From Cyanidioschyzon merolae (taxonomy: Eukaryota), in assembly GCA_000091205.1 (NCBI GenBank), contig AP006497.2: DNA of 64,000 bases; one strand, 5' to 3'. The position numbers and the translations under genes are program-made. How positions within the stretch are numbered: the stretch's first letter is position 1; every line of letters begins with the position of its first letter. This document shows positions 8,561-64,000 of this stretch, in pieces. Under the pieces are notes generated by a model. The model was not told the DNA's origin and did no database searches. It saw only the letters and a program-made list of their open reading frames with translations.

Positions 8561-9175
8561 GCGCCACCGTGTTCCCATGGAAGAGAAATTTCGAAAACTT
8601 GAAGACTGCGTGACTGGGAGCTTCTGCACACGAATTCGAGAGTATATCATTTGCTCTCCGATGCCTTGTTCGACGGCGTCGCGAATCTTCATGTTTCCCG
8701 TGGCGTATCGAACTGCAGCGGTAAAGATCCCAGGTATCCATTCCGAAAACCCGACCGAGAATCCTAAAACTACCTTTGAGTTCTCAAGTCCGTCTCTTTA
8801 TATTTCGAATGTCGACTTTGGAAATCACGGAATAAAACATTCAGAAAAAAATGCAAAGCCACGAACACAGTGCGAGCATCTCCCAATCCACTTGTAATCC
8901 AGGATTGGCGTGGTATCATCTGCGCGCTGTTGATGCAGCACTAGCACCAATACGCTGGTCTCTCAGGAACTCAAGTCGGTTGGGTCCTAAAAACCACCAG
9001 CGTGGGAGGAATTTTCATCTGTCCGTGCTAACCGCTTGGCTGTTTCTTTGAACCAGTGGCGGGAAGCAAGGCTCGGTTCACTAGGACGAGTCTAGCGGAG
9101 CGTTACGGTGCTGATCGAAAGGCCGTGCCGCTCTACCGCCGAGCACTCCGAGTTCATGTGGCTGGCTCTTTCGAC

Positions 9176-18280: not shown

Positions 18281-18325
18281 TGACGACTGCTTTCGACTTT
18301 TGAAAGGCGTTTGCTAGCGGTGTAA

Positions 18326-28670: not shown

Positions 28671-28762
28671 ACTGAAAAAATAACACAAAAAAGTAAGACA
28701 AGAAAAATGCGCATCCTCGGAGAACGCTGGCTTAAGGAAACGTTTTGTCCATGAGAAAAAAA
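28671..28762 (+). mobile_element. Short poly(A)-tailed retroposon copy (SINE-like or 5'-truncated retrocopy), 92 bp, flanked by a 12-bp TSD
   Basis: A perfect 12-bp direct repeat tccatgcggcat at 28659-28670 and 28763-28774 brackets the insert exactly. The insert ends in gagaaaaaaa and is about 85% identical to 44621-44710. It contains the micro-ORF MRILGERWLKETFCP* (28707-28754). Confidence 0.6.
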
Positions 28763-41643: not shown

Positions 41644-43860
41644 ATGACGTTAAACTTGGAGCGTGTGGTCGCATCGAAAACCCTGCCAACGGTTCTGCGT
41701 TATGCAGCGCTGACAGCAGCAGCTGTATTAGCTTTTGCGATCCGTCTGTTCAGCGTCGTGCGTTACGAGCCTGTGATCCACGAGTTTGATCCCTACTTCA
41801 ACTACCGCGCCACACGTGTTCTTGTCGACAAGGGTCTATACGAGTTCTGGAACTGGTTTGATGATACATCTTGGTACCCACTTGGTCGAGATGTGGGTGG
41901 TACCGTGTACGCTGGTACTATGTACAGCGCCGCCTTGGTCTACTGGGTACTGCAAGCACTTGGTTTCCCCGTCGACGTGCGCTACGTTTGCGTCTTCGTA
42001 TCGCCACTGTGGGCATCGTTCACAACGCTTATTACGTACGCCTTTACAAACGAGTTGACTGAACAAAAGGACTCAATTGCGGGCCTCTTTGCGGCAGTTT
42101 TCGTTGCCATTGTGCCTGGCTACATTTCGCGGTCATCGGCCGGAGGATTCGATAACGAGTGCGTGGCGATTTTCGCGCTGATGAATACCTTCTATCTTTT
42201 CATGAAGGCGGTGAATACCGGTGCGCTGCAGTGGGCGCTTGCGTGTTGTCTCGGCTATCTTTACATGGTAGCATGCTGGGGTGGCTATATCTTCATCATC
42301 AACTTGATTCCAATCTATGTCATCGTCATGATACTAGCTGGGCGGTATTCTCATCGGATCTATGTCGCCTATTCTACTTTTTACATCCTCGGCACGTTGT
42401 TATCCATGCAGATACGCTTCGTTGGCTTTCAAGCCGTGCAATCGGCAGAGCACATGCTCGCTGCTGTCGTCTTCCTGGCGCTGCAAGTTTATTGCCTTGG
42501 GCAATGGATTCGCTCCATTGTCGCCGAACAGGTCTATCACGCATTTGTGCGTTATTTTGTTATAATCGTTGGATCCGCTTTTGCAGGGCTCGGGGTACTG
42601 CTTCTGGCCGCAGGTTACATTCAGCCGTGGACGGGGCGCTTCTACACGCTGCTGGACCCAACGTATGCGAGCAAACATATACCCATCATTGCGTCGGTGA
42701 GTGAACACCAGCCAACGGCATGGTCGTCGTATTTTTTTGATTTGCACTTTCTGACTGTGCTAGCGCCACTCGGTCTCTACTACTGCTTCCAAGAACTGAC
42801 GGATGCAACACTCTTTGCCATCCTGTATTTCGTTTTTGCAGTCTATTTTTCTGGGGTTATGGTTCGACTCATGTTGGTGCTGGCGCCTGCTGCATGCGCA
42901 ATGGGTGCTGTTGGCACAAGCCGTCTCCTGCAGTCCTTTGCTGTGGACTTGAAAGCTGAACTTGCTGAACGCAATTGGATTCCATGGATCAGCGATATGC
43001 AGCAGGCGAGCAATGCGTCGCCTGGCAAAAAGCACACTGCCGGTGCAAGTAGCACCAGCAGCACGAGCGGCAACCGGGGTCGCGTCACGGGCAGCAGTCA
43101 GGGAAACAATCGGGCGAGCGCGCTGCGCTTGGAGGTTTCGTTGGGGATCCTCTTCAGCGCACTCCTTCTCGGAAACGCGTACGTCAAGCACTGCGTCTGG
43201 GCCGCTTCTGAGGCTTATTCTTCTCCGTCCATCGTATTGGCAGGTCAAGGGCCATCTGGCAGGTTCCTCATCGACGATTTCCGAGAAGCCTACTACTGGC
43301 TGGGGTCCAACGCAGCGGCGGACGCAAAAATTGCCTCCTGGTGGGACTACGGCTACCAGATCGCAGGTATGGGTTTCCGCACGACCATTGTGGATAACAA
43401 CACCTGGAACTTTACGCATATTGCAACAGTTGGCAACATGCTCAGTCGACCAGAGAAGCAGGCATACCAAATAGCGCGTATGCTGGACGTTGACTACGTG
43501 CTGGTCATATTTGGCGGCCTGATTGGATACGGTGGCGACGACGTGAACAAGTTTCTTTGGCCGGTACGCATTGGCGGCTCAGTTGATCCAACGCTTCGTG
43601 AGGCGCAGTTCCTCACTCGAAGGGGTGAGTTTCGCCTCGACGAAGAGATGGCTCCAGCGATGCGAGAGTCACTTCTGTTTAAGCTCTGTTACCATCGTTA
43701 CGGTGAAATCAGCAACGGCTATGATCGCGCTCGGGGTTATCGGGTAGCGCATTTGGACGTCAGGTTGGAACTATTCGAAGAGGCATTCACATCCGAGCAT
43801 TGGATCGTACGAATCTATCGAGTGAAACCGCCAAGCAACCGCGGTAATGTAGCATGGTGA
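41644..43860 (+). CDS. STT3: Dolichyl-diphosphooligosaccharide--protein glycosyltransferase catalytic subunit STT3
   Basis: A 738-aa multi-TM protein with the diagnostic WWDYGYQIAGMGFRTTIVDNNTWNFTHIATVGNMLS (WWDYG motif) and a C-terminal ...DYVLVIFGGLIGYGGDDVNKFLWPVRI. The ATG at 41644 is verified. The ORF is uninterrupted. Confidence 0.9.
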   Translation: MTLNLERVVASKTLPTVLRYAALTAAAVLAFAIRLFSVVRYEPVIHEFDPYFNYRATRVLVDKGLYEFWNWFDDTSWYPLGRDVGGTVYAGTMYSAALVYWVLQALGFPVDVRYVCVFVSPLWASFTTLITYAFTNELTEQKDSIAGLFAAVFVAIVPGYISRSSAGGFDNECVAIFALMNTFYLFMKAVNTGALQWALACCLGYLYMVACWGGYIFIINLIPIYVIVMILAGRYSHRIYVAYSTFYILGTLLSMQIRFVGFQAVQSAEHMLAAVVFLALQVYCLGQWIRSIVAEQVYHAFVRYFVIIVGSAFAGLGVLLLAAGYIQPWTGRFYTLLDPTYASKHIPIIASVSEHQPTAWSSYFFDLHFLTVLAPLGLYYCFQELTDATLFAILYFVFAVYFSGVMVRLMLVLAPAACAMGAVGTSRLLQSFAVDLKAELAERNWIPWISDMQQASNASPGKKHTAGASSTSSTSGNRGRVTGSSQGNNRASALRLEVSLGILFSALLLGNAYVKHCVWAASEAYSSPSIVLAGQGPSGRFLIDDFREAYYWLGSNAAADAKIASWWDYGYQIAGMGFRTTIVDNNTWNFTHIATVGNMLSRPEKQAYQIARMLDVDYVLVIFGGLIGYGGDDVNKFLWPVRIGGSVDPTLREAQFLTRRGEFRLDEEMAPAMRESLLFKLCYHRYGEISNGYDRARGYRVAHLDVRLELFEEAFTSEHWIVRIYRVKPPSNRGNVAW

Positions 43861-44585: not shown

Positions 44586-44710
44586 TTGGGAGTAGGGGGT
44601 TGATGCATACCTCACCGCGCACTGAAAAACACACACAAAAAAATAAGAAAAGAAAAATGCGCATAATCGGAGAACGCTGGCCTAAGTACACATTTTGTCC
44701 ATGAAAAAAA
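44586..44710 (+). mobile_element. Short poly(A)-tailed retroposon copy (longer, 125 bp) flanked by a 12-bp TSD
   Basis: A perfect 12-bp direct repeat tcgcacaggaac at 44574-44585 and 44711-44722 brackets an insert ending in catgaaaaaaa. Its 3' 90 bp match 28671-28762. It contains the micro-ORF MRIIGERWPKYTFCP*. Confidence 0.6.
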
Positions 44711-45447
44711 TCGCACAGGAACGAGGTCACAGGTTCCCAAGCGACAGCCTACACACTAAAACACGTTACATGTATTGTTCCAGCTAGAAGCGCTCTCCCC
44801 GTGCCGTTCGCGAAAACAAATACCAGCGCTAGAAGCGTGCTCGTCACTATGGATAGTTTAAAGCCGGCGTGCTTTGAAGCGCGATACGGCACGTTCCAGA
44901 AAACTCCACGAGCACGGAGCCTTTTATGCAGTGCCGAACGAGAGCCTCGAGGTCTGCTCGCGCTGCTGGGTGCACCGGGAAGGGCCTCACGGGCTTTTCC
45001 AGTCCATAAAAAGCACAGCTCAGCGCTATTCACTCGGGAACTCGAACAACATACCATCGCTTGGCGTACTGTGGCTGTGCTTGCAGTTTCCCAGTCGGTA
45101 CGTTGAAAGCTGATGCGGCTTAAGAGCGTATATTTTGTTCCAGAGGATCTTTGCGTCTCATCAGAGACCTTTGAGAAGCGCAAGCCCCACTCCGAGTCCA
45201 TACCATGGCACCTATGTGCAGCGCCACCACCGCTGCTCCGCTGTCGACGCTCACCCGATGACCAGTCCCGGAACGATACCCAGCGGCGATGGCGTACGTT
45301 GCTTCGTTTCGAAAAGGGTTGGCGAGCCACGTGCGTCGCTTCTTCGTCGCAACACGAAGCCGACCAGTGTGTGTTTAGCATATAGCACTCGGTTTGGAGA
45401 AGCTTGAGGGTGTCTACGCGCCGACCACGCTGACCCAGCAGACGTCC

Positions 45448-48400
45448 ATGGCTTGCAGCGGGAAGCGCTCTGCACGAGACTGCATCGAGCGCTGTGAGAG
45501 CCTCAACTTTCCGAGCTGCTTCAGGCGATCTGGCTTCAGCTTCATTGGTCCCTGGACGGCACATGAGCGTCAGGATGCATCCATTTTCATACCGTGTTGC
45601 CCGATATCGTTTCAGAAACGGAAGTTTGTACGTTTTAGACGAGGTTCCGCGAGCGTCCGGCGTACGCAGCGCGGAGGCGACGTTCGAGCGAGTTCGAGTG
45701 ACCAGAACGGCTCCGTCGCCCGTGACGACGTAGACACGCCACTAGCCCGACGGGGGCATCACCCGGAGACGCAGCCTCCTGACACGACTCAATTCGCTCA
45801 AGCAGGTGCGAACGGCGGGTCAGAGACACCAGCGAAAACGGCGTTTCAACCAGCGCTGGCCCCGAGCCTTGCACACACGTTGGAGCGACGCCTGCCGCAA
45901 CTCCGCAGCACGTTTCTCAGCCTATTCGGATGTATTACAGTGCTATTTATTCGCTTTGCAACGGCCACTGTTTTCCTGGGCATCATGGTGTTGGCCTGGC
46001 TCGGATACTTTGCCGCGAATCAACGGCTGGGTGCGCTCGTTCACAGCGCAGCTTCAACGTCGCTAGGACGCTCCATTAAAGTCGGGAGACTGAAGCGGCT
46101 CGTATTGCCACTCGGTGTTGCCGCTGGAAAACTCGAGATGGCCCCGGATGCCTCCAAACCCTGTGGTTCACTCGGTGCGGTGCAAGTACGACTAGCCATC
46201 GAGCCGCGTCGCTGGATAACCCTTCGTACTGGACGAGTACGTTTCGATGTGCAGTTCCGGCGGGTTGCCCTGGAACTACACCAGCATCAGCCGGGCGAAT
46301 GGGACCTCGGATGGTCAGTCACGCCAGGCAAACGCACCGACGATGCCTCCAGCGACGTCAACACCGCCGATGCACTGCCCAGCGGGCAACGAGCCCGCAG
46401 TGTCCCAACACAGGAGTTACCAGCGAACGGTGCCGAGCAAGCGCTGCCTCCGGCGTTAGCGGAAGCGACGCTACCCGTGGCGCTTCGTGTGGTAGAGTTC
46501 AAACGCTCAAGCGTCGCATTGGACGTGCTAGGGACAGGTGACTCGGCCTTTGGCCGAGGAATTTATGTGTTCCGGGGGATTCACGGGCGCCTGGTGTTTG
46601 CCCAGGGCATGAACGCGCTCACGGGCAAGCTGTCGTTCGAAACTGAGCACCGGGGAGCGGGATCCTGCGAGCTCGCCCTCGACTTGCAGCGCAATATTCA
46701 TCGTATCAGCGTACAGACTAGAGCGCTGCCGGCGAAAACTGTGGTAGCGCTGCTGAACCTGCCCTTCGAAAGCGATACAGGTCGAGTGCACGGCCAGGTC
46801 GCGTTGGTGCTGCGACCCGATGCCAAGGCTCCCGAACTGACCGGAACCGGTAGATTGCAGCAGGTAGCACTGCGACTCGCCCCTGACGCGCCAAGTTTCA
46901 CGGGCATATCGGGTCGCCTCCGCTTCGATGAATCGATGGTGATCTTCGAGGGCCCAACCGGTTTCTTCGGGCAGCTACCCATAACCGTCGTCGGGTCCAT
47001 CGACTTGTCCAAAGACTACAATCTGATTGGTTTCGTGCGTCGGGTAGCGATCAGCGACGTGCTCAAGACGTTTCGAGTGGAGTCTCCGATTCCTGTCCAT
47101 GGGAGCGTCAAGGCAGAGGTTCGCATGCATGGCCCACTGGAGAGTCCGCTTCTCACTGGAGCTGCGATTTCAGTCGGAGCTCCCTGGAGAGCGGATCGAA
47201 TTCATCTGCGAAATGCCCGGGCAGACTTCCAGCTTGATACGCGTTCAATGGAACTGCAGATTGCCGCAATGGAAGCGACGCTTCAGGATGGCGGTCAACT
47301 TAGCGGCCATGGTGTACTGAAACTGGCTGCGAACGGTGCTGTGACCGCCTCGTCAATTCGGGATACCGAAGCAAACGAGTCATCGTCTCCGGTTGCAGTG
47401 AACGATTCCAGAGCAGAGCGAGATCCTGCAACACAGGAGCCGTCTGTTCAGCTGGCGCTGAACCTTCGCGGTGCCCACGCTGGCCCCTTGTTGGCGAGGT
47501 ATCTCCATGAACCCGGCAAGCAGGGCACCGTTATGGACCCTATTGGCCGCCTGTCTGCGGAGCTGACGGTTTCAGGTCCGTTGAGCGAGGCGGAACTCAA
47601 CTTGCGGTGGCGTCTGGTGGGCACTGCGCCACCAGAGGCATCGCAGACGGTTGCGTCTTGCGGGGCGGAAGCACCCACACCGAATGCGAAGCTCTATGGA
47701 GCGGCCTCCGGAACGCTCCGGATGCCCCTGGTTGCTCGACATACCAATGCGAATATCGATATCAATACAGGTACCGGTGCTCGTGCGTTAGCTCCAGTTC
47801 CAGCTCCTCCTCGTACTGCTGTAACTGGGAATACCAGTACGGATCCGGAGCCTCAGCGCCTTCGTTTCACCCTAGACGCCTATGGTATCGACCTGCGTCG
47901 TCTAGCATGGCGACCGGAATGGACGACTGCTCCCAAGGCACTGCTGGACACGCGTCTTTCCGCGGATGTAACGCTGCAACAACCGAAGCGCTCTACAGCC
48001 GACGCCGCACAACGCCAACAGGCTCCTTGCGTAGAAGCGTTTCTCGACGTGAGACGCTTGCAGCTGAACGAGTTCGGCTATACGCGTCGTCTTGCGGGAA
48101 AACTGCGCTTTCATCCAGACGAGGGTGTGCAGTTCCAGGCGCTTCCGCATGAGCACAGCTCAGCGCAACGCAGCGCTGCTTCGACTCTGCAGCCAGGAAG
48201 CGACGAACTCCAAAAGCTACCTGTTTTCCTCAGCGTTCAACTGGACCCGAGTTTCCGACGTGATCTGGCGGTGCATCTTCGTCGTGATCGTTTCCGTCTT
48301 GATGTTTCGTACCAGGAAAACAGCCGCTTCGAAGCATGTCTCGAAAATATGCCCATCGAAGAGTTGCTCGGCCCCGATTACGGGGCTGGTGGCCTCGTTG

Positions 48401-48924
48401 AAGCCACCTTGTCCGTTGACCTGCAACAGGAGCGTGGCACGGGCTCGTTTGCCCTCCGTGATGCGTATTTTCGTCAGTTTCGTTGCCGGGCGTTCGCCGG
48501 TGAGCTCTTCTGGCTCGATAAGACCGTGTTTCTGCAGAACAGCGTGATCCAGCAAGCGCGTTCCGAATACCACATTGAGGGCGTCTACTCGTCCAGCAAT
48601 GTTGCCGTGGGGTCAGCTGCGTCAACGCTGCCCAGTTGGCAGACCAAGATCGTGATTCCTCGCGGGGATATCGCGGAGCTCGCCTGTCTCGCCCAGGCGG
48701 TGAACGGGCAACTGGACCCAACGATCCTCTCGTATTGGGAAATTCCCCCGCATCTCTCTCTGGAGGAGCAGATTCTCTGGTTTGCAGACTATCTCTGTCA
48801 GAGCGCTGATGTGTCTCCCGACGATTTTCTCAATGACGATCGCACACTGCCGCGAAGGGCAGAGCCCGGGAGCAGCGCTTCCCCTGCTGGCGACGCAAGC
48901 GCCGGGTGCCGTCATCTCAGCTGA
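45448..48924 (+). CDS. TamB/TIC236-like giant protein, N-terminal ~1160 aa segment (frame A)
   Basis: A predicted N-terminal membrane anchor FLSLFGCITVLFIRFATATVFLGIMVLAWLGYF is followed by a very long, repetitive, beta-rich sequence. The frame ends inside the 48782-48924 overlap with the next ORF. The track start at 45394 is TTG; the first ATG is 45448. Confidence 0.5.
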   Translation: MACSGKRSARDCIERCESLNFPSCFRRSGFSFIGPWTAHERQDASIFIPCCPISFQKRKFVRFRRGSASVRRTQRGGDVRASSSDQNGSVARDDVDTPLARRGHHPETQPPDTTQFAQAGANGGSETPAKTAFQPALAPSLAHTLERRLPQLRSTFLSLFGCITVLFIRFATATVFLGIMVLAWLGYFAANQRLGALVHSAASTSLGRSIKVGRLKRLVLPLGVAAGKLEMAPDASKPCGSLGAVQVRLAIEPRRWITLRTGRVRFDVQFRRVALELHQHQPGEWDLGWSVTPGKRTDDASSDVNTADALPSGQRARSVPTQELPANGAEQALPPALAEATLPVALRVVEFKRSSVALDVLGTGDSAFGRGIYVFRGIHGRLVFAQGMNALTGKLSFETEHRGAGSCELALDLQRNIHRISVQTRALPAKTVVALLNLPFESDTGRVHGQVALVLRPDAKAPELTGTGRLQQVALRLAPDAPSFTGISGRLRFDESMVIFEGPTGFFGQLPITVVGSIDLSKDYNLIGFVRRVAISDVLKTFRVESPIPVHGSVKAEVRMHGPLESPLLTGAAISVGAPWRADRIHLRNARADFQLDTRSMELQIAAMEATLQDGGQLSGHGVLKLAANGAVTASSIRDTEANESSSPVAVNDSRAERDPATQEPSVQLALNLRGAHAGPLLARYLHEPGKQGTVMDPIGRLSAELTVSGPLSEAELNLRWRLVGTAPPEASQTVASCGAEAPTPNAKLYGAASGTLRMPLVARHTNANIDINTGTGARALAPVPAPPRTAVTGNTSTDPEPQRLRFTLDAYGIDLRRLAWRPEWTTAPKALLDTRLSADVTLQQPKRSTADAAQRQQAPCVEAFLDVRRLQLNEFGYTRRLAGKLRFHPDEGVQFQALPHEHSSAQRSAASTLQPGSDELQKLPVFLSVQLDPSFRRDLAVHLRRDRFRLDVSYQENSRFEACLENMPIEELLGPDYGAGGLVEATLSVDLQQERGTGSFALRDAYFRQFRCRAFAGELFWLDKTVFLQNSVIQQARSEYHIEGVYSSSNVAVGSAASTLPSWQTKIVIPRGDIAELACLAQAVNGQLDPTILSYWEIPPHLSLEEQILWFADYLCQSADVSPDDFLNDDRTLPRRAEPGSSASPAGDASAGCRHLS

Positions 48925-51382
48925 CGGCAGGCGAGCACAGCGGAAACGACCTCTGAAGCCACCGAGTCTCGCTGACTTGCGCGGAAGCTATCGGGGCACC
49001 ATCTCCATGAGCAGCGGTGCAGAGCGACTGGCCTTTGACCTCAACGGCGAACAGTGGGCCATCGGGCCGCACGAACTCGGTACGATGTGTGCTCGCGGGG
49101 GCATCCATCGAGGAATCATTAACCTGGAACAGTTATCGTTTCAGGTGGCGTCTTCGTCGGGGGCTATGGTCCATCTCAGTGGCACTGCCGACCCAGCGGG
49201 AGCCTTACACGCGAACCTACATCTAGCCAAAGTTCCGCTGCACCTGCTCTCTGACTACGGACTGGCACCGGTTCGTCTCACCGGAGTGCTGCACTCGTCA
49301 GCAGAGTTAGCCGGCACGGTTCGGGATCCGACACTCCATGTGAAAGGTCTCTGGCAGGAAGCATCGCTGAATGGTCTTCGGTTGCGGGACCCGCAGGCCG
49401 AGCTGCGCTGTGACCTCGGACGCTGTCGTGTCCGCGCTACCGCAGCTGTTCCAGTTCAGCAGCGCAACTGGGGTCCGGTGCGCCCCAGTTGGCGCTTCTG
49501 GAAACGCCCTAGGCCCAGTGTCGCGCAACAACGCTGGCTGGACGGCAGCGAAACCTCTACAGCGAAACCGGGAGCATCCCGAGCGGCTTCTTCAGATGCT
49601 GCTGCTGCTGCTGCTGCAATGACGCTTCACGGGAGTATGCCTTTGAGCGGCGTTCGTCTTGAGGGGTCGCTTCCGATTCGACTCGCTCATGTGCTGGAGC
49701 GTCTCTTGGACCCGCGGATACCTCTGACAGAACGCTTTACCACGTTCTCGTTGCACGACCTGCTCGTAGCGACAGACGCGAGCGAGTCGATGCAGATTGA
49801 TGTGCAGGTGAAACGCAGTGGTGCTGCGCTTGTCGCAGCTTTTCTTCCTCAGGTGCCCGTTGCAGGCGGCAGCGCTGACCTGCGGATTCGTTTACGCGGA
49901 GCGCCGCTTCAGCCCCAGGTTACCGCTCGATGTAGTCTATCGGATGTGCGAATCGCCCCGCCGGACCTGGAAACACCCATTGAGAGCGTGTATGGCGAGG
50001 TCGAGCTTCGCGACTGGATGCTGCACGTCCACTCGATGACTGGCCTCGTCCAGGGTCGTGTGTGGTCGCTCAAAGGCGTTCTTCCTGTATGGACGCCAAT
50101 GACGAACTGGGACGCCAGTCCCAGCGACGCGGAGAACGTACGAGAACCCGAACCGCTTACGTTGCAGCTGGAGAACCTGCCAGTGCATCTGCGGGATCGC
50201 TATCACGGCAGGGCAACGGGTCAGGTCACCGTTCATGGCACAGCGCTGCAACCGGTACTGCGGGGCTCGCTGACCCTCCACGATGGCTCGATCATGTTAT
50301 TGCCGGGATCCTCGAATCGAAATACCCAGCGAATAACGAATGCAAACAGTAGTAGTAGTGGTAGCATTAGTAGTAGTAGTAGTGGTGGTGGTGGTGGTGG
50401 TGGTGGTGGCGGTGTTGGTAACAGCACTACTACTACTACCAGCAGCAGTAGCAACAGCAGCAGTACTAGTACGAGTAATGGTAACGGCAGTAGCAACAAT
50501 ACGACGCCGCTGCGCCCGGATAACGAACTCGACATGCGCACCTACGAGTCGGATGAGAGTTTTATGAATCCTTTTCTGGAGCTCGTCGAGCAAGGTTTCC
50601 CAGACATTGTCTTTGAAGAGTTTCGATTGCGTTTGGGGTCGCGAACGCGGGTCGTTTTCCCGCTGGTGCTCAGCCTGCATCTGCAAGGAGACGTCGACCT
50701 GAACGGACCGCTCAGTGACTTGCGACCGAGCGGCTCGTTTCGCATTCTCGACGGGTCCCTCAATTTGCTTACCAACCGCTTGTACCTCATTCGATCGGTT
50801 CCCAACTCGGTGAGTTTCAGTCCGGATGCTGAGCAGGGCGCGCCGCTGGACCCCCTGCTACACGTCTCGTTATCCGATCGTCGCAAGTATACAGTTCGTC
50901 TGCGAAACGTACGGGCAAGCAAATGGGAGAGCGCACTTGAGGTGCTGGACGCCCAGGGTGTTCCCCTGGAACGGAGTCAACTGGTAGCGATGCTCAATGA
51001 GCGTCTCGGGAACGTTTCTGCAAACCTGCAACTGCGAAATGGTGGCTCCTTGGCGCTTCGATCCCTGCTGAACACGTATACCGTCGGGGGCTCGCTTGGA
51101 CGTGGTGGTGGTACGCTCTGGCGCCTCAGTCCGAACGTGACGGCACGACCCGAGAGCACAGCGCTGCCCGGCACCGGCTTGCTGTCAGAGCAACTCGGAG
51201 TGTATGGTGAACTTGAGAGTGGTCGCTTTGTTTTGTCATTTTCGCGCGATATGCAAGGTTTGGGGATCACGTCGATCTCCTATCGACCGTGGGAGCGTTT
51301 CAAGATGGAGTACGAGAAGCGGGAGACCGGCGAGCAGCACCTGGAAGCGAAGATCTACCTCAGAGGCGCCAGTGATGATTAG
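48782..51382 (+). CDS. TamB/TIC236-like giant protein, C-terminal ~866 aa segment (frame B), including a DUF490-like terminus
   Basis: The C-terminus ...LRLGSRTRVVFPLVLSLHLQGDVDLNGPLSDLRPSGSFRILDGSLNLLTNRLYLIRSVPNSVSFSPDAEQGAPLDPLLHVSL resembles the TamB C-terminal domain. The frame is offset +1 from the upstream ORF and overlaps it by 143 nt. A poly-Ser/Gly/Thr insert is encoded at 50348-50505. Confidence 0.5.
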   Translation: MQTISVRALMCLPTIFSMTIAHCREGQSPGAALPLLATQAPGAVISADGRRAQRKRPLKPPSLADLRGSYRGTISMSSGAERLAFDLNGEQWAIGPHELGTMCARGGIHRGIINLEQLSFQVASSSGAMVHLSGTADPAGALHANLHLAKVPLHLLSDYGLAPVRLTGVLHSSAELAGTVRDPTLHVKGLWQEASLNGLRLRDPQAELRCDLGRCRVRATAAVPVQQRNWGPVRPSWRFWKRPRPSVAQQRWLDGSETSTAKPGASRAASSDAAAAAAAMTLHGSMPLSGVRLEGSLPIRLAHVLERLLDPRIPLTERFTTFSLHDLLVATDASESMQIDVQVKRSGAALVAAFLPQVPVAGGSADLRIRLRGAPLQPQVTARCSLSDVRIAPPDLETPIESVYGEVELRDWMLHVHSMTGLVQGRVWSLKGVLPVWTPMTNWDASPSDAENVREPEPLTLQLENLPVHLRDRYHGRATGQVTVHGTALQPVLRGSLTLHDGSIMLLPGSSNRNTQRITNANSSSSGSISSSSSGGGGGGGGGGVGNSTTTTTSSSSNSSSTSTSNGNGSSNNTTPLRPDNELDMRTYESDESFMNPFLELVEQGFPDIVFEEFRLRLGSRTRVVFPLVLSLHLQGDVDLNGPLSDLRPSGSFRILDGSLNLLTNRLYLIRSVPNSVSFSPDAEQGAPLDPLLHVSLSDRRKYTVRLRNVRASKWESALEVLDAQGVPLERSQLVAMLNERLGNVSANLQLRNGGSLALRSLLNTYTVGGSLGRGGGTLWRLSPNVTARPESTALPGTGLLSEQLGVYGELESGRFVLSFSRDMQGLGITSISYRPWERFKMEYEKRETGEQHLEAKIYLRGASDD
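50348..50505 (+). repeat. Coding (AGT/GGT/AGC)n microsatellite cluster encoding a poly-Ser/Gly/Thr/Asn tract inside the TamB-like gene
   Basis: agtagtagtagtggtagc...ggtggtggtggtggtggtggtggc...actactactaccagcagcagtagcaacagcagc translates to SSSGSISSSSSGGGGGGGGGGVGNSTTTTTSSSSNSSSTSTSNGNGSSNNTT. Confidence 0.85.
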
Positions 51383-53147
51383 AGGCACTGGCTGGGGCCG
51401 AGCACCGCCACCCGCGCCAGCACCGCACTGGTTTGGTTTCATTACGAGCGCACGAAGATTGTCGAGTGTTTCTTTCCAGTGCAGGCGGTCTCGGGACGTA
51501 AGCGCCAACCATATCAGAGTCGTGAGCAGTGCCTTGCTGGCAACTTTGGCTGGAAGACGAGCGGCAGAAATGCCGGCTTTTGCGGGCAAAGCAAGCAGTT
51601 CTGGTGTATTCAAAGACGGTGCCTGGAGCAGGTACATGCTCTAGTGATGGTCTAAACTCGTTTCAGATGAACATGGAACACTGAACGTTTCGCTCTGTTC
51701 CAGCCTGGAGCATTTGTTTCGGAATGTGTTGGTATGAATAGCATGGCATTCGAGCTGGAATCAGACTGGCTTGATTCTTCACATGTAGGTATAGGATTTT
51801 GCGGGGTCGTTCATTCGGGGTGACCCCTTCGATGCTTTGCCTATGGTACGCGTTACGTCACCAGAATCATGACAATTGGTGACACTTCCAAACAGAAATT
51901 CGTGAAATAAGCACTATGATCATTCATTGCATACGTATAGGTTCACGATTGAACCCGTTTCTTGATACGGACCATGATCAAAATATGCATGCTTCAAGCT
52001 TTCGACCTCTACGTTTCAAAGCTACTCGCAGGTGCAGCAACGCAGGCCGCCGAACTGCCGAGAAGCGGCAACTCGGCGTCGTTCCAGGACAGTTTTTTCA
52101 AAACCTCATGCCGAACGTTCCCTGACCTTGTCGCGTCGCATCAAGAAATTCGAAGGAAGGAACAGTCACGCCTGGTTCGTGGCCAGCGACGGAACCGCAT
52201 TCGACAACAGCAGCGTGATAGCACTCGCGTGTCACGCTCCCCAGAGCTTCCGTCGGTACAGATTGCATGGAAACGAGCCTTGGAAACGGACTTGAGTCAT
52301 CGCAGTGATCGCTTTCTCTGGGGAATCCGTCATCGTTTTGCAGGAAGCGTGCGTAGATGGATCGAAGTCTCTCTACTTGTTCTCGTAAGGCGATGCTGCT
52401 TCCGGTGCTTATTTCATCATGGACCACAGCATCGTACTCAACACATGCTTCGTTGAATAGAGCAGCATGCGCTGGTATCTGCTGCGGACATGGTACTCGA
52501 CGAATGAGCATCGCTCCAGAGAAGCAACCCCTGAACGTTGGGTATGGCGTCAGGCGCAGAGACGCAGCAGAGCGCATGGACGGGAGTCGTCGGTGCCCAA
52601 CGACGTCATGTACGGAGCGGTGAAGTAGGTGTTCGCAGGCCACACAGAGTCGTTCTTGGAGAAGCATCTCTGGCGGACACGTATCTCTAAGCACCTGAAC
52701 AAATCCAAGCGTCAACGCGACGACGGGCGCACCCAAGCTCTGAACCCAAAACATGAAAGCGCCAGTCGAAACGTAGATCACAACGAACGTCGACGCATTC
52801 AATACGTCGCCACCAGCCAGAAAAGTAAAAGCATACGAACTTGAATGTTGGTATGAACATCTTTCGCTACTGCAGAGAACGGAGCTGGATGAAAAAAGAG
52901 AGGCATCTGGAATGAACGCTCGCGACAAGAGAAGGGTACCAGAAGCAGTCGCAGACCCCAGCGCCCAAATCTGGTGTTGATGACAATGGAAGGAGACACA
53001 AAGCTTCGTATGGACGCCCGAGTCAGCATAGTGGGATCATTGTACTCTATGCTGACGCAGGTAGAGTTGGAATGACATGCTTTGACCTGCGTCCGTGTAC
53101 ACGTGGCTGCTTAGGTGCATCCGTACGTCGGTGCGACATGGTGTAAC

Positions 53148-53499: not shown

Positions 53500-54234
53500 T
53501 CAGACAGAATGGTCATGCGCCCTATGAAGTGCCTCCCGTAGCCCAGCAATCACACGCCCAGCATCCGGCCCTGCACCGAATACAGCAGAGCCAGACACCA
53601 GAACATTGCATCCTGCCTGAGCAGCTGCGTCTGCGGTTGTCAGGCCGATGCCACCATCCGCTTGAATATCAAGGAGCGGATATCGTTCGCGAAGAAACCG
53701 CACCTTGGGTAGACATTCAGGCATGAAGCTTTGCCCACCGTGTCCAGGCTCAACGGTCATAATCAGAACCATATCAACTGCGGCTGCGTCTACCAGCGGA
53801 AGCACAGCCTCAACTGGGGTACTCGGGCGAAGGGCCACGGCTGGTCGCGCCCGTAACGCTCGAACACGCTCGCAGAGTGCCAGCGCCATGCGCAGACCGT
53901 CTTCTCCAAACACCTCGTAGTGGAAGGTGCAGCCCAGGTTTGGAGCTGGGCCCTGGTTATCGCCGTTGACGCGGGCGAACTGCTCGATCCAGAACACCGG
54001 CGCGGTGGTCATAAAGTGGCAGTCCAGAAACACTTGTTGGCCGACGGCTCGTCGGAGACCCTGGAAGACAACAGGCCCGAGTGTCAAGTTGTCGACAAAG
54101 TGCCCGTCCATGACGTCCACGTGCAACCAGTCGGCCCCGGCGTCGAGCACGCGTTTCGCCTCAGCTCCGAGGTTGCCAAAGTCACAAGAGAGCAACGACG
54201 GTGCAACGATGGTCGCTAGAGGTTTAGACTGCAT
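53500..54234 (-). CDS. RPE: Ribulose-phosphate 3-epimerase (RPE)
   Basis: ...PLATIVAPSLLSCDFGNLGAEAKRVLDAGADWLHVDVMDGHFVDNLTLGP...MTVEPGHGGQSFMPECLPKVRFLRERYPLLDIQADGGIG are RPE catalytic and metal-binding motifs. The track start is GTG; the first ATG is complement 54232-54234, which gives MQSKPLATIVAPS. Confidence 0.85.
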   Translation of the reverse strand: MQSKPLATIVAPSLLSCDFGNLGAEAKRVLDAGADWLHVDVMDGHFVDNLTLGPVVFQGLRRAVGQQVFLDCHFMTTAPVFWIEQFARVNGDNQGPAPNLGCTFHYEVFGEDGLRMALALCERVRALRARPAVALRPSTPVEAVLPLVDAAAVDMVLIMTVEPGHGGQSFMPECLPKVRFLRERYPLLDIQADGGIGLTTADAAAQAGCNVLVSGSAVFGAGPDAGRVIAGLREALHRAHDHSV

Positions 54235-56590
54235 CTTCTCGTTGACTGCAAAAGGGAGGCAGCACCAGTGCTTTCGCTGCTCGGGCTCTGCTGGTCGAGA
54301 GGAAACGCGACTCACACACGGTTTCTGGGCCTCTGCAGTGCAGCCTCGTCTCCGGAAACGGTACGCTGATGCGACCGGGCAACCGAGTCGAGCGAGGCGG
54401 CGTTCGCGTCTGCGGTAGCTCCAGCAACGGCAAAAGCAGCAACCTCAGGAACGAGGATGCAAGCAACGTTGCGTATGTTGAGGCCGTCTACAGATTGGAT
54501 TTTTGCACGATACTTGTTCACAGTCGGACTGATGCGTGGCGGGTTTCAGGTGCCGCACGACTTGGGTGTTGGCATATGCTTCGGGGAATCTCAGCAGCAT
54601 CGAAACAACGTGCGTGTTTCAGTTCCTGGGGAAACTTAACAGCGCTGATAGAAAAGCACTGCTGGCGACGGAGTGTTGCGGTATTCGCCCTCCTGGTGTC
54701 GAGGTCGGCAAATGCCGCACCATAGTGTTGTGCGAAGCGACTGCATGCTCGACGAAAGCGTTGCGTATCGTCGGATGCTGAGAACGGCATGCGGCTGCCA
54801 AGTCAGCGGTGTGTCGCTGTTGCGGCCGGTGTCGTGCGCTTGGGGTTGGCATCCCGGCTTTTGGACGACATCTGCACCAGTTGAGCGGATACACTGAAAG
54901 ACCGGTCGCACGCTGGTTTTGTTTGCAAGTGCAACGAGCGTGGTGTCGGTGGAGCGTTATGCGCTCCTATCTCGATGCAGGGGCTCCTTCTTCAGAAAAG
55001 CGCTAAGCAGCATAAAAAACTGAGTGAACGAAGCGATCACTGGAGGCCCTAGCACACCTTTCCAGCTTTGGACGCTTTACGAGGGGCTTTTCTTATCGAC
55101 ATGTGCAGCAGCTCCCTTGCGGACGATAAACAGAACGACTTGGCGGAACGGCGACAGATTCATGTTCACGAAAGCGGAAACGTACCGCCCCTGCATCAAG
55201 TTCTCCAGATCCGCACTGCGAGGTTCCGCTGCCTCTGATGCATACCAGTACAACAAATCATCCGGTGCTTGTCTTGAAGGATGTTCGGGGACGTGTCAGA
55301 TGAAGGCACTGCAACCATGGCAGTCACTGGAGCGACATACGACGATGCCGTACTCTTCGAGACGATCCCTGCAACCGTACATGATGCAGCGTAGCGTCAC
55401 CATGGGATAAGCGTGCGTACCTTTGTCCGGTCGAAATAGGACTCTTGGCAAGGCGGCCTGCTCTTTCTGGTGGAGAATTCGATGCCAACTGGCATGCCAA
55501 GTACACAAATGGAAGTCATCGAGTCCCTAACCAACAATTTTTCATCCTAGAGCAAGAATCATGTATTCTTTTCTGATAAGAACGAAGAGTTTTACTCGCT
55601 TTCCACGCTCGTATGCTTTCTCGTTGAAAGACATGTACCGCAGCGATCGAGTGGCACAGCTAGACATGCTACAACGCACCGTTTCGTCTGGACCGTGCTT
55701 GACGCCCTTGCATCGTCATCACGACAGCGACATACTCGCTCCGGCAGCAAATAGTCCGACTTGCGAGCGGCGCTTATTTTTGTACAGAGAAGTCGTGCGC
55801 CGCAAGGACATGATCTACAATGACAATCACGATTTTCACTTGTGCTGCTGAAGACGCGTTGCCGCCTCGGACAGAGGCCGTGGAGGTCGCACCGCCTCCG
55901 CTCATTGCCCGTGAGTGGCTCTCGTTGATCCGGTTGCAACGCGCTGTCAGCGGGGAACGATTGCCACCTGGCGGGTGCACGCCCCTTCCCTCCGAGGCAG
56001 ACGTAAATAGTACGAATGCGGGAGAGCCTCTGACATGGCGCTCGAGGTCCCAGACGAACGGGCGAAACGCACGATGGCTGCACCACCACCGCAGATCGGT
56101 GAGTCGCTCTGCGCTCATTTTTGATCCAGTGTCTGTTGGATAGAACGCTTGCGGTGGTGGTCAACAGGCTGCAAAGTTTCGTTGCCGGGTCCGAAACGGG
56201 ACTGTATGAGGTACTTTTGGGATACGCGTGGAATCCAATGCAAGTGTCTTCAAGTGCATGTTCAAATGCTTGTCCCTAGACACATCCAGACATGCCTAGA
56301 GGGATGCACTGATCTCCATACGAATACGCATCGACTCATGTGCACAATTTTTCATGGATATTCATGGAGGCCTGAGCTTGGACACGCGTCCACAAATCCA
56401 AAGATCGTCGTATACACAGGTACTCACGGGAACACGCGACATGTGCGATCAGAAGATTGCACCATCGCTTCACAATGGAACGCAATGGTATCCTGGGCAG
56501 TAATATCGAAGTAAAGAACAAACGTATCGTGCACCAATTGCGCAGAGAAATCGTTTCCTTTTTAAAGATACAGTGTTTCGGCCTTGCTGA

Positions 56591-59357: not shown

Positions 59358-59667
59358 GAACGCCTCACATCAGCACGAATAGAGCCTAGGTACGTCATGA
59401 AACGAACGCCTAAAGCCCTGAACGCCTCACATCAGCACGAATAGAGCCTAGGTACGTCATGAAACGAACGCCTAAAGCCCTGAACGCCTCACATCAGCAC
59501 GAATAGAGCCTAGGTACGTCATGAAACGAACGCCTAAAGCCCTGAACGCCTCACATCAGCACGAATAGAGCCTAGGTACGTCATGAAACGAACGCCTAAA
59601 GCCCTGAACGCCTCACATCAGCACGAATAGAGCCTAGGTACGTCATGAAACGAACGCCTAAAGCCCT
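59358..59667. repeat. Minisatellite: 62-bp unit x5 perfect tandem copies
   Basis: The unit gaacgcctcacatcagcacgaatagagcctaggtacgtcatgaaacgaacgcctaaagccct starts at 59358, 59420, 59482, 59544 and 59606. The array overlaps the stop codon of the coiled-coil gene on the minus strand. Confidence 0.95.
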
Positions 59668-60650
59668 GTGGCTTTCGACGTGCCCTCTCGTTGGGTATTT
59701 CGGCCGCGATTCCATTCCCCGTCAAGGTCGTAGAGACGCAACTCCAGCGCTCTGTTTCGTCTTTGCAATGTTTCCACCTCGTCAGAGAGGTGAAGTGACT
59801 TGAGCTTGAGGGCTTCGTAGGCCTCTCGCGTCGCATCCAAGGCTGTCTCAAGCTCTAGAACTCGCTTTCGGAGCGACTGCACTTGGTACTCAAGTCGCTC
59901 TCGTTCCGACTCTGCATTGGCGGCTGCGACTTTGGTCTCGACCAGCAAGCGCTCATAATCTTCTAAAGACGAAGGTTCCACACGTAAAAGTTCAGCGATA
60001 GACAGGCGCTCGACTTGTTCGGTATCCCAGTTCCCGGTTGATGACGTGGCTGGCGTCGGGCGTTGGCGTGACTCGTCGACACGGTCGTGCTGCAGCGTGT
60101 CCCCAGAAGTCCCGATACTGAGGTGTTCAGAACAAGTCACCAGCGACTTTGCCGGAGAGCACGCTTGTTCCGCGACGCGCCTCCGACTTGATGCTTCACG
60201 CGTTTCACCGGGGACAGCTTCCAGCGGCTCTTTTGAGGTGCGGCTCGATGAGCAAGTGTCAGCTGATGCGCAGCCTCTGTCCGTGCCGCCACGCGCTGCC
60301 AAGGCGGCTGTCGTGACTTGCACTCCAGGCAGCGATTCGTCTGTACATTCGTTGCTGAGAGCGTTTGAATTGAGGCCCGTCGCGTGTTCACCTCGCGTTG
60401 CGTCTCGACCGGTGGGGCAGCGCGCACTGGACGCGTCGCTTCCAGCGCTCGTCGACATGGGTAGGCAAGCGACTTTTGCCTTTTCTAAAACCAAAACCGG
60501 TACCGACCAACGGTGCACCCTGGTGCTGGCTAGTGTGTCTCTCGTCGGCTTGAGCAGCACGTTCACACACCGTCTCCACTGTGAGGCACAACGAAGCGCT
60601 TTTCCACGCGTCAACTCTCTGAAACGTCCAGGTAACGCGCACCGATGCAT
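59658..60650 (-). CDS. Hypothetical protein with a C-terminal coiled-coil
   Basis: The ATG at complement 60648-60650 is verified. The C-terminal ~110 aa (...LEDYERLLVETKVAAANAESERERLEYQVQSLRKRVLELETALDATREAYEALKLKSLHLSDEVETLQRRNRALELRLYDL) has heptad-like periodicity. The N-terminal half is Ser/Thr-rich. Confidence 0.45.
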   Translation of the reverse strand: MHRCALPGRFRELTRGKALRCASQWRRCVNVLLKPTRDTLASTRVHRWSVPVLVLEKAKVACLPMSTSAGSDASSARCPTGRDATRGEHATGLNSNALSNECTDESLPGVQVTTAALAARGGTDRGCASADTCSSSRTSKEPLEAVPGETREASSRRRVAEQACSPAKSLVTCSEHLSIGTSGDTLQHDRVDESRQRPTPATSSTGNWDTEQVERLSIAELLRVEPSSLEDYERLLVETKVAAANAESERERLEYQVQSLRKRVLELETALDATREAYEALKLKSLHLSDEVETLQRRNRALELRLYDLDGEWNRGRNTQREGTSKATGL

Positions 60651-61293: not shown

Positions 61294-61677
61294 GCAAGCG
61301 TACGCCGTTCTACTCGATAGATGATAAGCGGATTCCGATGTCTTCCATGATGAAACAGCAAGCGTACGCCGTTCTACTCGATAGATGAGAAACGGATTCC
61401 GATGTCTTCCATGATGAAACAGCAAGCGCGCGCCGTTCTACTCGATCGATGATAAGCGGATTCCGATGTCTTCCATGATGAAACAGCAAGCGTACGCCGT
61501 TCTACTCGATCGATGATAAGCGGATTCCGATGTCTTCCATGATGAAACAGCAAGCGCGCGCCGTTCTACTCGATCGATGATAAGCGGATTCCGATGTCTT
61601 CCATGATGAAACAGCAAGCGCGCGCCGTTCTACTCGATCGATGATAAGCGGATTCCGATGTCTTCCATGATGAAACA
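61294..61677. repeat. Minisatellite: 64-bp unit x6 tandem copies (minor variants)
   Basis: The unit gcaagcg[ta/cg]cgccgttctactcgat[a/c]gatga[t/g]aa[g/a]cggattccgatgtcttccatgatgaaaca starts at 61294, 61358, 61422, 61486, 61550 and 61614. The spurious minus-strand ORFs MLFHHGRHRNP... are read through it. Confidence 0.95.
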
Positions 61678-64000
61678 AGCACCGGATGAAACATCCACGC
61701 TCGAGAACATGCTTAGATCTTTCGATCCATCTACGCTCCCTTCTTGCAAAGTGGCAGTGAACGCTCCCTTGCATCGATCGCTACGTGAATTCAAGTCCGA
61801 GTCCATGACCGGGTTCCATGTAAACAGAAGAGACGCGAGGTACTCGAAGTGTATGTATTGAACGGAATCATGCTGTGGTGGAAAGCCGTTTCGTCGATGT
61901 CTACGTAGAAAGGAGGATTTCTCTTTCTAACGGGATGGATGATTTCAAGTGGCAGGGTCAGTGAATGTTCTGCAGGCGCTTATGAAGAGGTTTCGATATC
62001 GAACGTCGAGCTTGTTTTCTTCGGCAGAACGGCGGCGCGCGTTGCTGCACCTGCATTCAGACTTGAAACACGAAGGTCAAAAAATGGAAGCATGCTCACT
62101 TCGATCATGTTCTATATCAAGAAAACGGGAAGACTCGGAACTTGCACATTTGCATTGTATCATCATGTCGGATAGTTCACGAATCTCTGTTCGAGGGTGT
62201 CTGGTACCAGATTGATTCCGGTGACGTTTCCACTTGGTGCGGCAAATCGTCGACAGAGCCACTAGGTTCCGGTCGATACCCCTTCAAACTGTGTATGAAT
62301 CCGCAAGCCGTTCCTGCGACACATGAAACGTCCAGACTGTACAGCTGGAAATAGTTTGGAAAGAAGCTCGAGTCCAGGAACACATCGTGCACTACAGTGT
62401 TCCATTTTAATATGAAACGGATGTTGAGGGTCGAAACGGGAAAATCAAAGCGTTCCGGTGACGTCAAACGCTTCGAATCGTGTTTGGGTATGTTCGTATC
62501 GTCATGTTTAGAGCAGTACGGCAGATCAGGCGTCTCGTTCGCCTTGAACGAAACCATTGGCAAGATACGCTTCATGGGTGGACATGGCGCGGTGCTACCA
62601 TTGTTCACGTGTCCCGCTATTGCCTAGCACTGTCATCCCTTCGATGATAATCTGGTAGAATGCAGACTACTCAACAGGGAATCATAAACGCTTGCGCTGG
62701 GGTCGGTGGCACTGCTTTCGTCGCTTCACGCCAGCTCTGAACGAAGGCTTCACCCCGTCCAGATTCTTGCGCCGATTTCTTTGAAGGCGATCCTGTCTCT
62801 GAAAGAGTCGAACTTCGTACTGGGACCGGTTCCAAGGCTTTTGTATCGGTGCTGCACCTATAGGTGCTCGAACGGAGAATCATCTATCGTCAGGGGCGTA
62901 CACCTTGAGCGCCTGCATGGAACGGCACAGGCGGGTCCGTCTTGCATCACCGACGAATGCCGAGCGTGTTTGTGCCGAATCCAGTATTTTCGTATCATCG
63001 GTGTAGAGGCTACTACAAAGAACAAGTCGAAAAACGGATGGAATCAGTGTCCGTAGATATTTAAGGGTGTATGCGGCTCGTCATGCAGAGCGCTTTTGAT
63101 ACAGACAGGCAGTCATGCCGGCATCAACGCCGGCGACGAATGCTCTTCGCTAGAAATACCCAGCTGGTTCCTGCTCTGCAAACAATTTTAGGACTATACA
63201 CGGCATCCGCTGAGCAGGAGTCCTCGCCTATCCCATGTGGTGTTGCGATGCATGGTCGCCTTATCGCCACTGGTTAGCGCCAGCGACGAGCGCAGAGACG
63301 CTTTCGAGTGTATGGCGAGAGGCATCTGCCGGCATTTAAGGCTCACGCGGGCGCTGTTAGTGAGCGATAAGTACAAATCGTATACTACATGGTTCACCAC
63401 GAGACGCCTTCACAATCGGGTACAGAGAGCGCTGCAGACAGCGCAAGTTGCCATGTTCACCAGCTGCTGCACTTTCTACCTCATCCGCGAGAGTCTCGGG
63501 CTGTTTCCACACCACGAGAAGCAGCAAAAGAGGCGATGCAACAACGGATCCTGGACGTGCGCCTGCTTGTCTCTACTCGTTGTTGTTGCTGCTGTTGCTG
63601 CTCTCCATTCGAAGTCGTCTAAGGAGCATGGGTAGACGACGGGCGCGCACGCCCCGCATCACCTTATCCAGCCGTTCGAGCGCACTGCGCATCTCCAGGA
63701 GACGTTGTCGCTCTGCTGTTTCTGGTGTAGTATGATGGGCCAGCCAGAAACTAATCCTCGTGACCGCCTGTACGCGACTGCCTCGTCCCTCTGGACCGCT
63801 TCGCGCTGGCGACCGGGGACTCGTCTCCGACTCGGTCTCACACTGCGTCAGCTCCGACAGCGACGGCTCTTCCATGGTACCCAGCACCGGCGTCAAGCCG
63901 TGCAACTCCGGCGAGACGCTGCCCTGTGATGCAGGTGTAAAAAGCTCCACCCGTGCCGCATCGAAAGCGAACTCCAAAGCGTCTCGAATCAGAGAAACAA

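Follow-up and report, generated by a model that had tools for sequence, protein, structure and literature searches.

A 64,000-nucleotide stretch of Cyanidioschyzon merolae DNA (contig AP006497.2; hereafter the window) contains two long, overlapping open reading frames (ORFs) which very probably are the two parts of one nuclear gene of strain 10D, CMO228C on chromosome 15, the red-algal orthologue of TIC236, split by a surplus G that is most likely an error of the reference sequence. TIC236 is the plastid descendant of bacterial TamB. A sequence-only reading of the window had already taken the pair to be one split TamB/TIC236 gene, and this is correct, though previously published (PMC7291098); the one-base discrepancy that splits the C. 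merolae gene is known, a corrected protein record exists, and the group that described TIC236 had already corrected the red-algal sequence and made use of it. The value of the present analysis is practical rather than conceptual, the role of TIC236 as a TamB-derived link between inner and outer translocons being established in plants. The C. merolae reference proteome still holds a truncated "hypothetical protein" of 1158 amino acids (aa) without the TamB domain, and surveys of the import machinery that use this proteome can miss or mis-size the red-algal TIC236.

In the program-made list of ORFs, ORF1 occupies 45394–48924 (+ strand, frame 1, 1176 aa), with its first ATG at 45448, and ORF2 occupies 48782–51382 (+ strand, frame 2, 866 aa). 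The two are offset by +1 and have 143 nucleotides (nt) in common, 48782–48924, in agreement with the sequence-only reading. Both are long and intron-free, in a window of about 55% G+C, as suits nuclear DNA of C. merolae 10D. The break had been placed somewhere within the 143-nt overlap; an indel does lie there, and its exact site is narrower, the GGG run at 48904–48906. Deleting one G from this run leaves one ORF, 1977 codons long and free of internal stops. The joined protein is accordingly 1977 aa in length, not the roughly 2025 aa that had been estimated. Judged from the sequence, coding within the overlap is frame 1 up to 48903 and frame 2 from 48908 only. The parts of the gene that bear on the junction are as follows.

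45448–48903 (+): TIC236/TamB-like coding sequence, codons 1–1152, frame 1, from translation and homologues
48905–51382 (+): TIC236/TamB-like coding sequence, codons 1153–1977 and stop codon, frame 2, from translation, identity to AYA72647.1 after correction and the beta-rich model
48782–48924 (+): apparent overlap of ORF1 and ORF2, 143 nt, a frameshift artefact
48904–48906 (+): GGG run with one surplus G, the frameshift site, from the deletion test, environmental contigs L001–L003 and Sato et al. 2020

At the junction the window reads GCA AGC GCC GGG TGC CGT CAT CTC AGC TGA in frame 1. With one G removed the reading frame, which is interrupted in the window as given, becomes continuous, and the peptide across the junction of the joined protein is ...DASAGAVISADGR.... 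Ten related proteins, nine from metagenomes and AYA72647.1, read DASAG up to the junction and AVISADG after it (DASAGAVISADG). The corrected ORF agrees residue for residue, over all 1977 positions, with AYA72647.1, deposited as "putative TamB/Tic236 [Cyanidioschyzon merolae strain 10D]"; removal of the G thus bears out the earlier suggestion that a 1-nt indel would join the ORFs. AYA72647.1 represents the same gene, and the published chromosome sequence in the window has one G more. ORF1 read from its ATG is the C. merolae 10D "hypothetical protein" BAM81577.1 / XP_005537613.1 (1158 aa). Positions 45448–48921 are identical to P0002, and the intact part of the 1158-aa annotation ends at 48903; the annotation stops short of the TamB domain because of the additional G. 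BAM81577.1 is a nuclear protein of 10D, on a record of 902,900 bp; the gene is thus a nuclear one, and its host a eukaryote with a plastid. When the concatenated halves were used as the query, the protein search returned one cluster, which includes BAM81577.1 and AYA72647.1 and has as its representative P0001, a continuous metagenome protein of 1976 aa with 98% identity to the query.

The discrepancy has been documented by resequencing. Sato, Moriyama and Mori-Moriyama (2020) sequenced two descendants of 10D to about 190x and confirm "the deletion of G at 592,904 (CMO228C or Tic236)", placing the gene on chromosome 15 (PMC7291098). Their paper credits the first report of the G deletion in CMO228C to Chen et al. 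2018, Nature 564:125 (as given in PMC7291098). The difference between 592,904 and 48,904 is exactly 544,000; with the window beginning at chr15:544,001, as we infer, the first G of the run is the published site.

Environmental relatives allow the junction to be examined outside the cultured strain. The metagenome contig L001 encodes an uninterrupted ORF of 1976 aa; aligned over 5.9 kb, it has 28 substitutions relative to the gene. It shows only three indels relative to the window, of 18 nt (at about 47792), 1 nt (at 48904) and 21 nt (at 50379–50399), and the single nucleotide at 48904 is the sole one whose length is not divisible by three. On the 3′ side of the break, nine of the L001 differences are synonymous and two non-synonymous; the frame downstream of the break therefore fits selection in this lineage. 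Two further contigs, L002 and L003, were found by scanning metagenome contigs with a pattern that tolerated either GG or GGN. Both read GCCGGTGCC, and GG is present at the site in all three environmental contigs. These environmental Cyanidioschyzon sequences are an addition of this analysis and provide independent support for the one-G correction. A continuous reading frame is seen in all relatives and resequenced strains, and the surplus G is, as far as sequence comparison goes, absent from all other copies of the gene examined.

Homologues confirm that the two halves belong together. ORF1 without its frameshifted tail (1152 aa) was scored exhaustively against 1.84 billion representative proteins. 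On its own it has 363 homologues at E ≤ 1e-3 (216 at E ≤ 1e-10), most of them 1600–2400 aa long and aligned in their N-terminal part. For the comparison of the two halves 149 matches were listed besides P0001, of which 100 were at least 1400 aa long. Of these 100 long listed homologues, 96 are matched by ORF2 as well (E < 1e-3, scaled to the full library), without exception with the ORF1 match on the N-terminal side; the five homologues tested with Pfam all carry a TamB domain at the C-terminus. The possibility that the halves fall into unrelated families, which the sequence-only reading had named as an outcome that would speak against it, was checked in this way and did not materialise; its proposal of one TamB/TIC236 protein holds. 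Identity to the listed homologues is about 20–30%. Among the algae they include proteins of Cyanidium caldarium (1653 aa) and Cyanidiococcus yangmingshanensis (1911 aa), and the ORF1 matches include land-plant proteins from Riccia (2393 aa), Diphasiastrum (2148 aa) and Cuscuta (2211 aa). Homology to the land-plant TamB-domain proteins (about 2100–2400 aa) is collinear over the full length; by their size and domain we infer these to be TIC236. Full-length homologues also come from cyanobacteria, as TamB proteins of about 2100 aa. Word-indexed protein searches returned one cluster each, even with low-complexity sequence masked, and no distant homologues.

The same comparison disposes of the idea that ORF1 and ORF2 are two unrelated genes that happen to overlap. 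The idea draws on the reference annotation, in which ORF1 is a separate 1158-aa hypothetical protein, and on the want of a Pfam domain in ORF1. It is refuted by the shared, ordered homologues and their C-terminal TamB domains, and by the relatives, which encode a single ORF, and we regard it as having practically no chance of being right.

A spliceosomal intron of length 3n+1 would also join the frames, and had been offered in the sequence-only reading as the other option. Seven GT..AG pairs of that length fall within the overlap, and the number that could in principle bridge the two frames is 967; a joining intron would thus not have to be confined to 48782–48924, as had been assumed, and none is needed. 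No donor in the overlap resembles the GTRAG consensus. Introns are reportedly very few in C. merolae (Matsuzaki et al. 2004), which we count against splicing here. The intron is ruled out because the relatives are collinear across the junction, with frame 1 to 48903 and with frame 2 from 48908, so that nothing is missing between and no sequence is left to splice; its probability is accordingly minute. One protein could still be made with the extra base in place if ribosomes were programmed to shift by +1 at this point, or if transcription slipped on the run of G. The site is a short homopolymer, GGG, and a +1 shift there would yield the full-length product; a run of three bases is, however, a poor substrate for slippage, and inspection by eye, with no formal scan, recognised no frameshift motif at the site. 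In close relatives and the resequenced 10D strains no recoding is needed, because the G is simply absent there. We give recoding hardly any weight.

Having placed the junction, we turned to the domains and predicted fold of the joined protein. The features concerned are these.

45448–45918 (+): N-terminal presequence-like region, aa 1–157, from composition and low model confidence
45919–46062 (+): single hydrophobic helix, aa 158–205, from Kyte-Doolittle hydropathy and the AlphaFold helix
50147–50884 (+): match to Pfam TamB PF04357 (formerly DUF490), E = 4.1e-17, spanning the Ser/Gly/Thr insert

Residues 456–701 of ORF2 match PF04357 at 63 bits, against a cut-off of 22.4, over profile positions 28–209 of 381, which substantiates the TamB/DUF490-like C-terminus that had been recognised in the translation. 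From an alignment of 33 sequences, AlphaFold models the 824 aa beyond the junction as nearly all beta-strand, with a mean predicted local distance difference test score (pLDDT) of 72.8. This model matches TamB in the cryo-electron microscopy structures of TamAB (9xdc_B, E = 1.9e-7; 9xdd_B, E = 3.2e-6; probability 1.00) and the crystallised beta-taco fragment of TamB, 5vtg (probability 1.00, TM-score to target 0.57–0.63, root mean square deviation 2.7–3.3 Å). The C-terminal model thus has a TamB-like beta-taco fold. By sequence, the full-length protein has no match in the PDB at E ≤ 0.01.

The N-terminal part of the protein is less well defined. The AlphaFold model of the first 1152 aa (mean pLDDT 66.6) has pLDDT below 50 at residues 1–159, followed by a helix at 158–205, beta-strands to about residue 1072, a few helices, and a disordered tail at 1125–1152. 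The first 90 residues are basic and rich in Ser and Thr (R+K 17, D+E 7, S+T 16); from this composition and the disorder, aa 1–157 are presumed to be a plastid transit peptide. The Kyte-Doolittle maximum over 19 residues is 2.23, at aa 165–183, with a runner-up of 1.32, and this is the only such segment above 1.4 in the whole protein. The helix at 158–205 is presumed to be an inner-envelope membrane anchor. The sequence-only reading had placed a membrane anchor at the N-terminus; one hydrophobic segment is indeed found, not at the extreme N-terminus, however, as some 155 residues precede it. By the hydrophobic segment and the model, a predicted anchor is followed by a long, putatively beta-rich domain, as in the TamB family. 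The tail at 1125–1152 is modelled as disordered, and the frameshift site therefore falls within a disordered linker; residues 1–12 of the C-terminal model, directly after the break, are also of low confidence. The architecture shown here is thus an approximately 155-aa presequence-like N-terminus, the helix at 158–205, and about 1750 aa of repeated beta-strands and disordered loops with TamB at the C-terminus.

Several observations weigh against a corrected, orthologous TIC236 and have to be set beside this evidence. ORF1, the N-terminal half, has no match to any Pfam family at E ≤ 1, and NCBIfam likewise gives nothing on ORF1. A search with the chorein_N profile had been proposed as a check, and neither Chorein_N nor AsmA of Pfam matches either half; chorein-N-like regions have been described in AsmA-like proteins by more sensitive methods (Levine 2019, as cited in PMC10345924). 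The score against NCBIfam NF047952, the proteobacterial TamB equivalog, is 15.4 bits, where the cut-off is 825, and because the score is so far under this cut-off we regard the protein as a distant relative of TamB and not an equivalog. A fold search with the N-terminal model gave no convincing solved neighbour, only weak matches (LptD and ApoB100; E ≥ 2.6e-4, TM-score about 0.1); the likely cause is that solved structures do not extend to the N-terminal part of TamB. Finally, the extra G is truly present in the window as given, and the 10D culture originally sequenced no longer exists (PMC7291098), so that a true mutation of that clone is conceivable. It is for this last reason that a reference error, although most likely, is unproven.

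Were the G real in the sequenced clone, TIC236 would there be a pseudogene or be made as two polypeptides. This we consider improbable. The G was kept by the 2007 update of the genome, and the original strain is no longer available for comparison (PMC7291098); an older assembly of Cyanidiococcus yangmingshanensis also has the gene in pieces (1012 + 380 aa). Against this, the G is missing from both of the independent 10D descendants and from AYA72647.1, itself an independent sequence of 10D, and the newer Cyanidiococcus assembly has a single 1911-aa gene. The descendants share 81 indels relative to the reference (PMC7291098), which speaks for errors of the reference or for common descent, not for an event specific to this gene. 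No ATG near the start of ORF2 would keep the homologous sequence, and a separate downstream half would be without the presequence and membrane anchor. Loss of TIC236 is moreover embryo-lethal in Arabidopsis (PMC6683743). Less probable again is that the original 10D culture carried the surplus G and lived with a frameshifted TIC236, as two pieces or by recoding at GGG. If the G was real in that culture, an intact TIC236 bridge across the envelope would be dispensable in a red alga, or could be reconstituted from two parts.

The pieces in the older assembly of Cyanidiococcus yangmingshanensis, a sister alga, are P0016 (KAF6004124.1, 1012 aa) and P0166 (KAF6004123.1, 380 aa), and the one protein of the newer assembly is P0165 (KAK4530478.1, 1911 aa). 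A split-annotation artefact of the same kind as in C. merolae is thus found there too. It seems that this long, G+C-rich gene with its low-complexity sequence is prone to split annotation.

With the surplus G treated as a reference error, a function for the 1977-aa protein can be proposed by analogy with plant TIC236 and bacterial TamB. The helix would anchor it in the inner envelope membrane, and the beta-rich rod would span the intermembrane space. The C-terminal TamB domain could then dock on the POTRA domains or the barrel of an Omp85-type TOC75 in the outer envelope, and such docking would couple the TIC translocon to the TOC translocon in protein import. A hydrophobic groove of the TamB kind may also move lipids between the membranes. 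In plants, TIC236 is an integral protein of the inner envelope; its C-terminal domain extends through the intermembrane space to the POTRA domains of TOC75, and by binding them it connects the two translocons; Arabidopsis TIC236 is the protein for which the envelope location and the POTRA binding are known (PMC8931380). In bacteria, C-terminal strands of TamB insert into the TamA barrel (PMC12800296), and TamB, YhdP and YdbH have been proposed to act as phospholipid bridges with a lipid groove (PMC8593681, PMC10345924).

Of the known systems, plant TIC236 (Arabidopsis EMB2410, maize DEK5, rice SSG4) is compared first: both ORFs find land-plant proteins with a TamB domain (2148–2393 aa), and do so with their order kept. 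Maize DEK5 consists of a transit peptide, a membrane helix and a TamB domain (PMC6683743), the same layout as that presumed for C. merolae. The C. merolae protein is somewhat shorter, at 1977 aa, and it has low-complexity loops (poly-Ala, Ser/Gly/Thr and Pro/Ala) specific to its lineage; its gene is intron-free, whereas maize Dek5 has 23 exons (PMC6683743). With bacterial TamB it has in common the TamB domain, an N-terminal membrane helix and the fold of the C-terminal half, as matched by the model to 9xdc, 9xdd and 5vtg. It differs in being about 700 aa longer than E. coli TamB (1259 aa, PMC12800296), in its nuclear gene and presequence, and in its presumed partner, TOC75 and not TamA. In the AsmA-like or repeating beta-groove lipid-bridge proteins (YhdP and YdbH; VPS13 and ATG2 of eukaryotes), too, a membrane helix precedes a long series of beta-strands, and this family has been proposed to carry lipids from one membrane to another. 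Compared with these, the C. merolae halves are without a Chorein_N or AsmA match in Pfam, and a groove and lipid transport are only proposed.

The low-complexity sequence of the gene falls at three places.

47780–47800 (+): Pro/Ala-coding site with an in-frame length polymorphism, from the L001 alignment
49598–49618 (+): (GCT)6 + GCA, seven Ala, a low-confidence loop, from the sequence and the C-terminal model
50348–50505 (+): Ser/Gly/Thr trinucleotide microsatellite of strain-variable length, a loop in the TamB domain, from Tandem Repeats Finder (TRF) and the model

The sequence-only reading had pointed out the poly-Ala and Ser/Gly/Thr tracts as inserts amid beta-rich sequence, and both descriptions stand. 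The (GCT)n tract is (GCT)6 followed by GCA and encodes seven Ala. The Ser/Gly/Thr tract encodes NSSSSGSISSSSSGGGGGGGGGGVGNSTTTTTSSSSNSSSTSTSNGNGSSNNTT; TRF resolves it into (AGT)12 and (GTG)12.7. In the C-terminal model pLDDT falls below 50 at residues 216–244, the poly-Ala loop, and at 468–550, the Ser/Gly/Thr loop, so that each forms a low-confidence loop between confident beta-strands. The two indels of L001 that keep the frame are located in such sequence. The window is 21 nt longer than L001 at 50379–50399, in the Gly/Ser microsatellite, and L001 is 18 nt longer than the window at about 47792, where P0001 has ARAPAPAPAPVPAPAPPRT and the window ARALAPVPAPPRT. As both polymorphisms are in frame and in loops modelled as disordered, the tracts behave as evolving coding microsatellites. 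The recognition of two low-complexity tracts as length-variable, disordered loops is a further addition of this analysis.

The gene lies between that for the STT3 subunit of oligosaccharyltransferase (41644–43860, + strand) and that for ribulose-phosphate 3-epimerase (53500–54315, − strand), both identified with Pfam, and the order STT3–TIC236–epimerase is kept on L001. Antisense ORFs cover both ends of TIC236, one of 133 aa at the 3′ end (51236–51637, − strand) and one of 271 aa at the 5′ end (44749–45564, − strand). The former is called as a gene on L001 (9621–10022) and the latter has no Pfam match; both are probably spurious ORFs of G+C-rich DNA. An A-rich element of 90 nt occurs twice in the window, at 28671–28760 and 44621–44710 (87% identity). 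From the second copy it is about 740 nt downstream to the start codon of TIC236; the similarity may be due to chance, or to an intergenic or regulatory element common to both places. On the other side of the gene, some 500 nt past its stop codon, begins one arm (51891–52064) of an inverted repeat of approximately 175 nt, whose other arm is at 62017–62191, roughly 10 kb away (about 75% identity).

Elsewhere in the window, Pfam identifies the H subunit of Mg-chelatase (CobN/Mg_chel) at 1817–6091 (− strand). A direct duplication of 1,909 bp at 6653–8561 and 16374–18282 (99% identity, copies 9,721 bp apart) contains in each copy an ORF of 327 aa without a Pfam match (7176–8159 and 16897–17880). 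The copies were considered as the long terminal repeats of a retrotransposon, and this is ruled out because the genes enclosed between them are those of a leucine-rich-repeat protein (9056–12838) and a tRNA (uracil-5) methyltransferase-like protein (13832–15931, − strand). Two tandem arrays, one of a 62-nt unit repeated 5.0 times at 59358–59668 (100% identity) and one of a 64-nt unit repeated 6.0 times at 61294–61677 (96%), flank an ORF of 330 aa at 59658–60650 (− strand), which has no match in Pfam.

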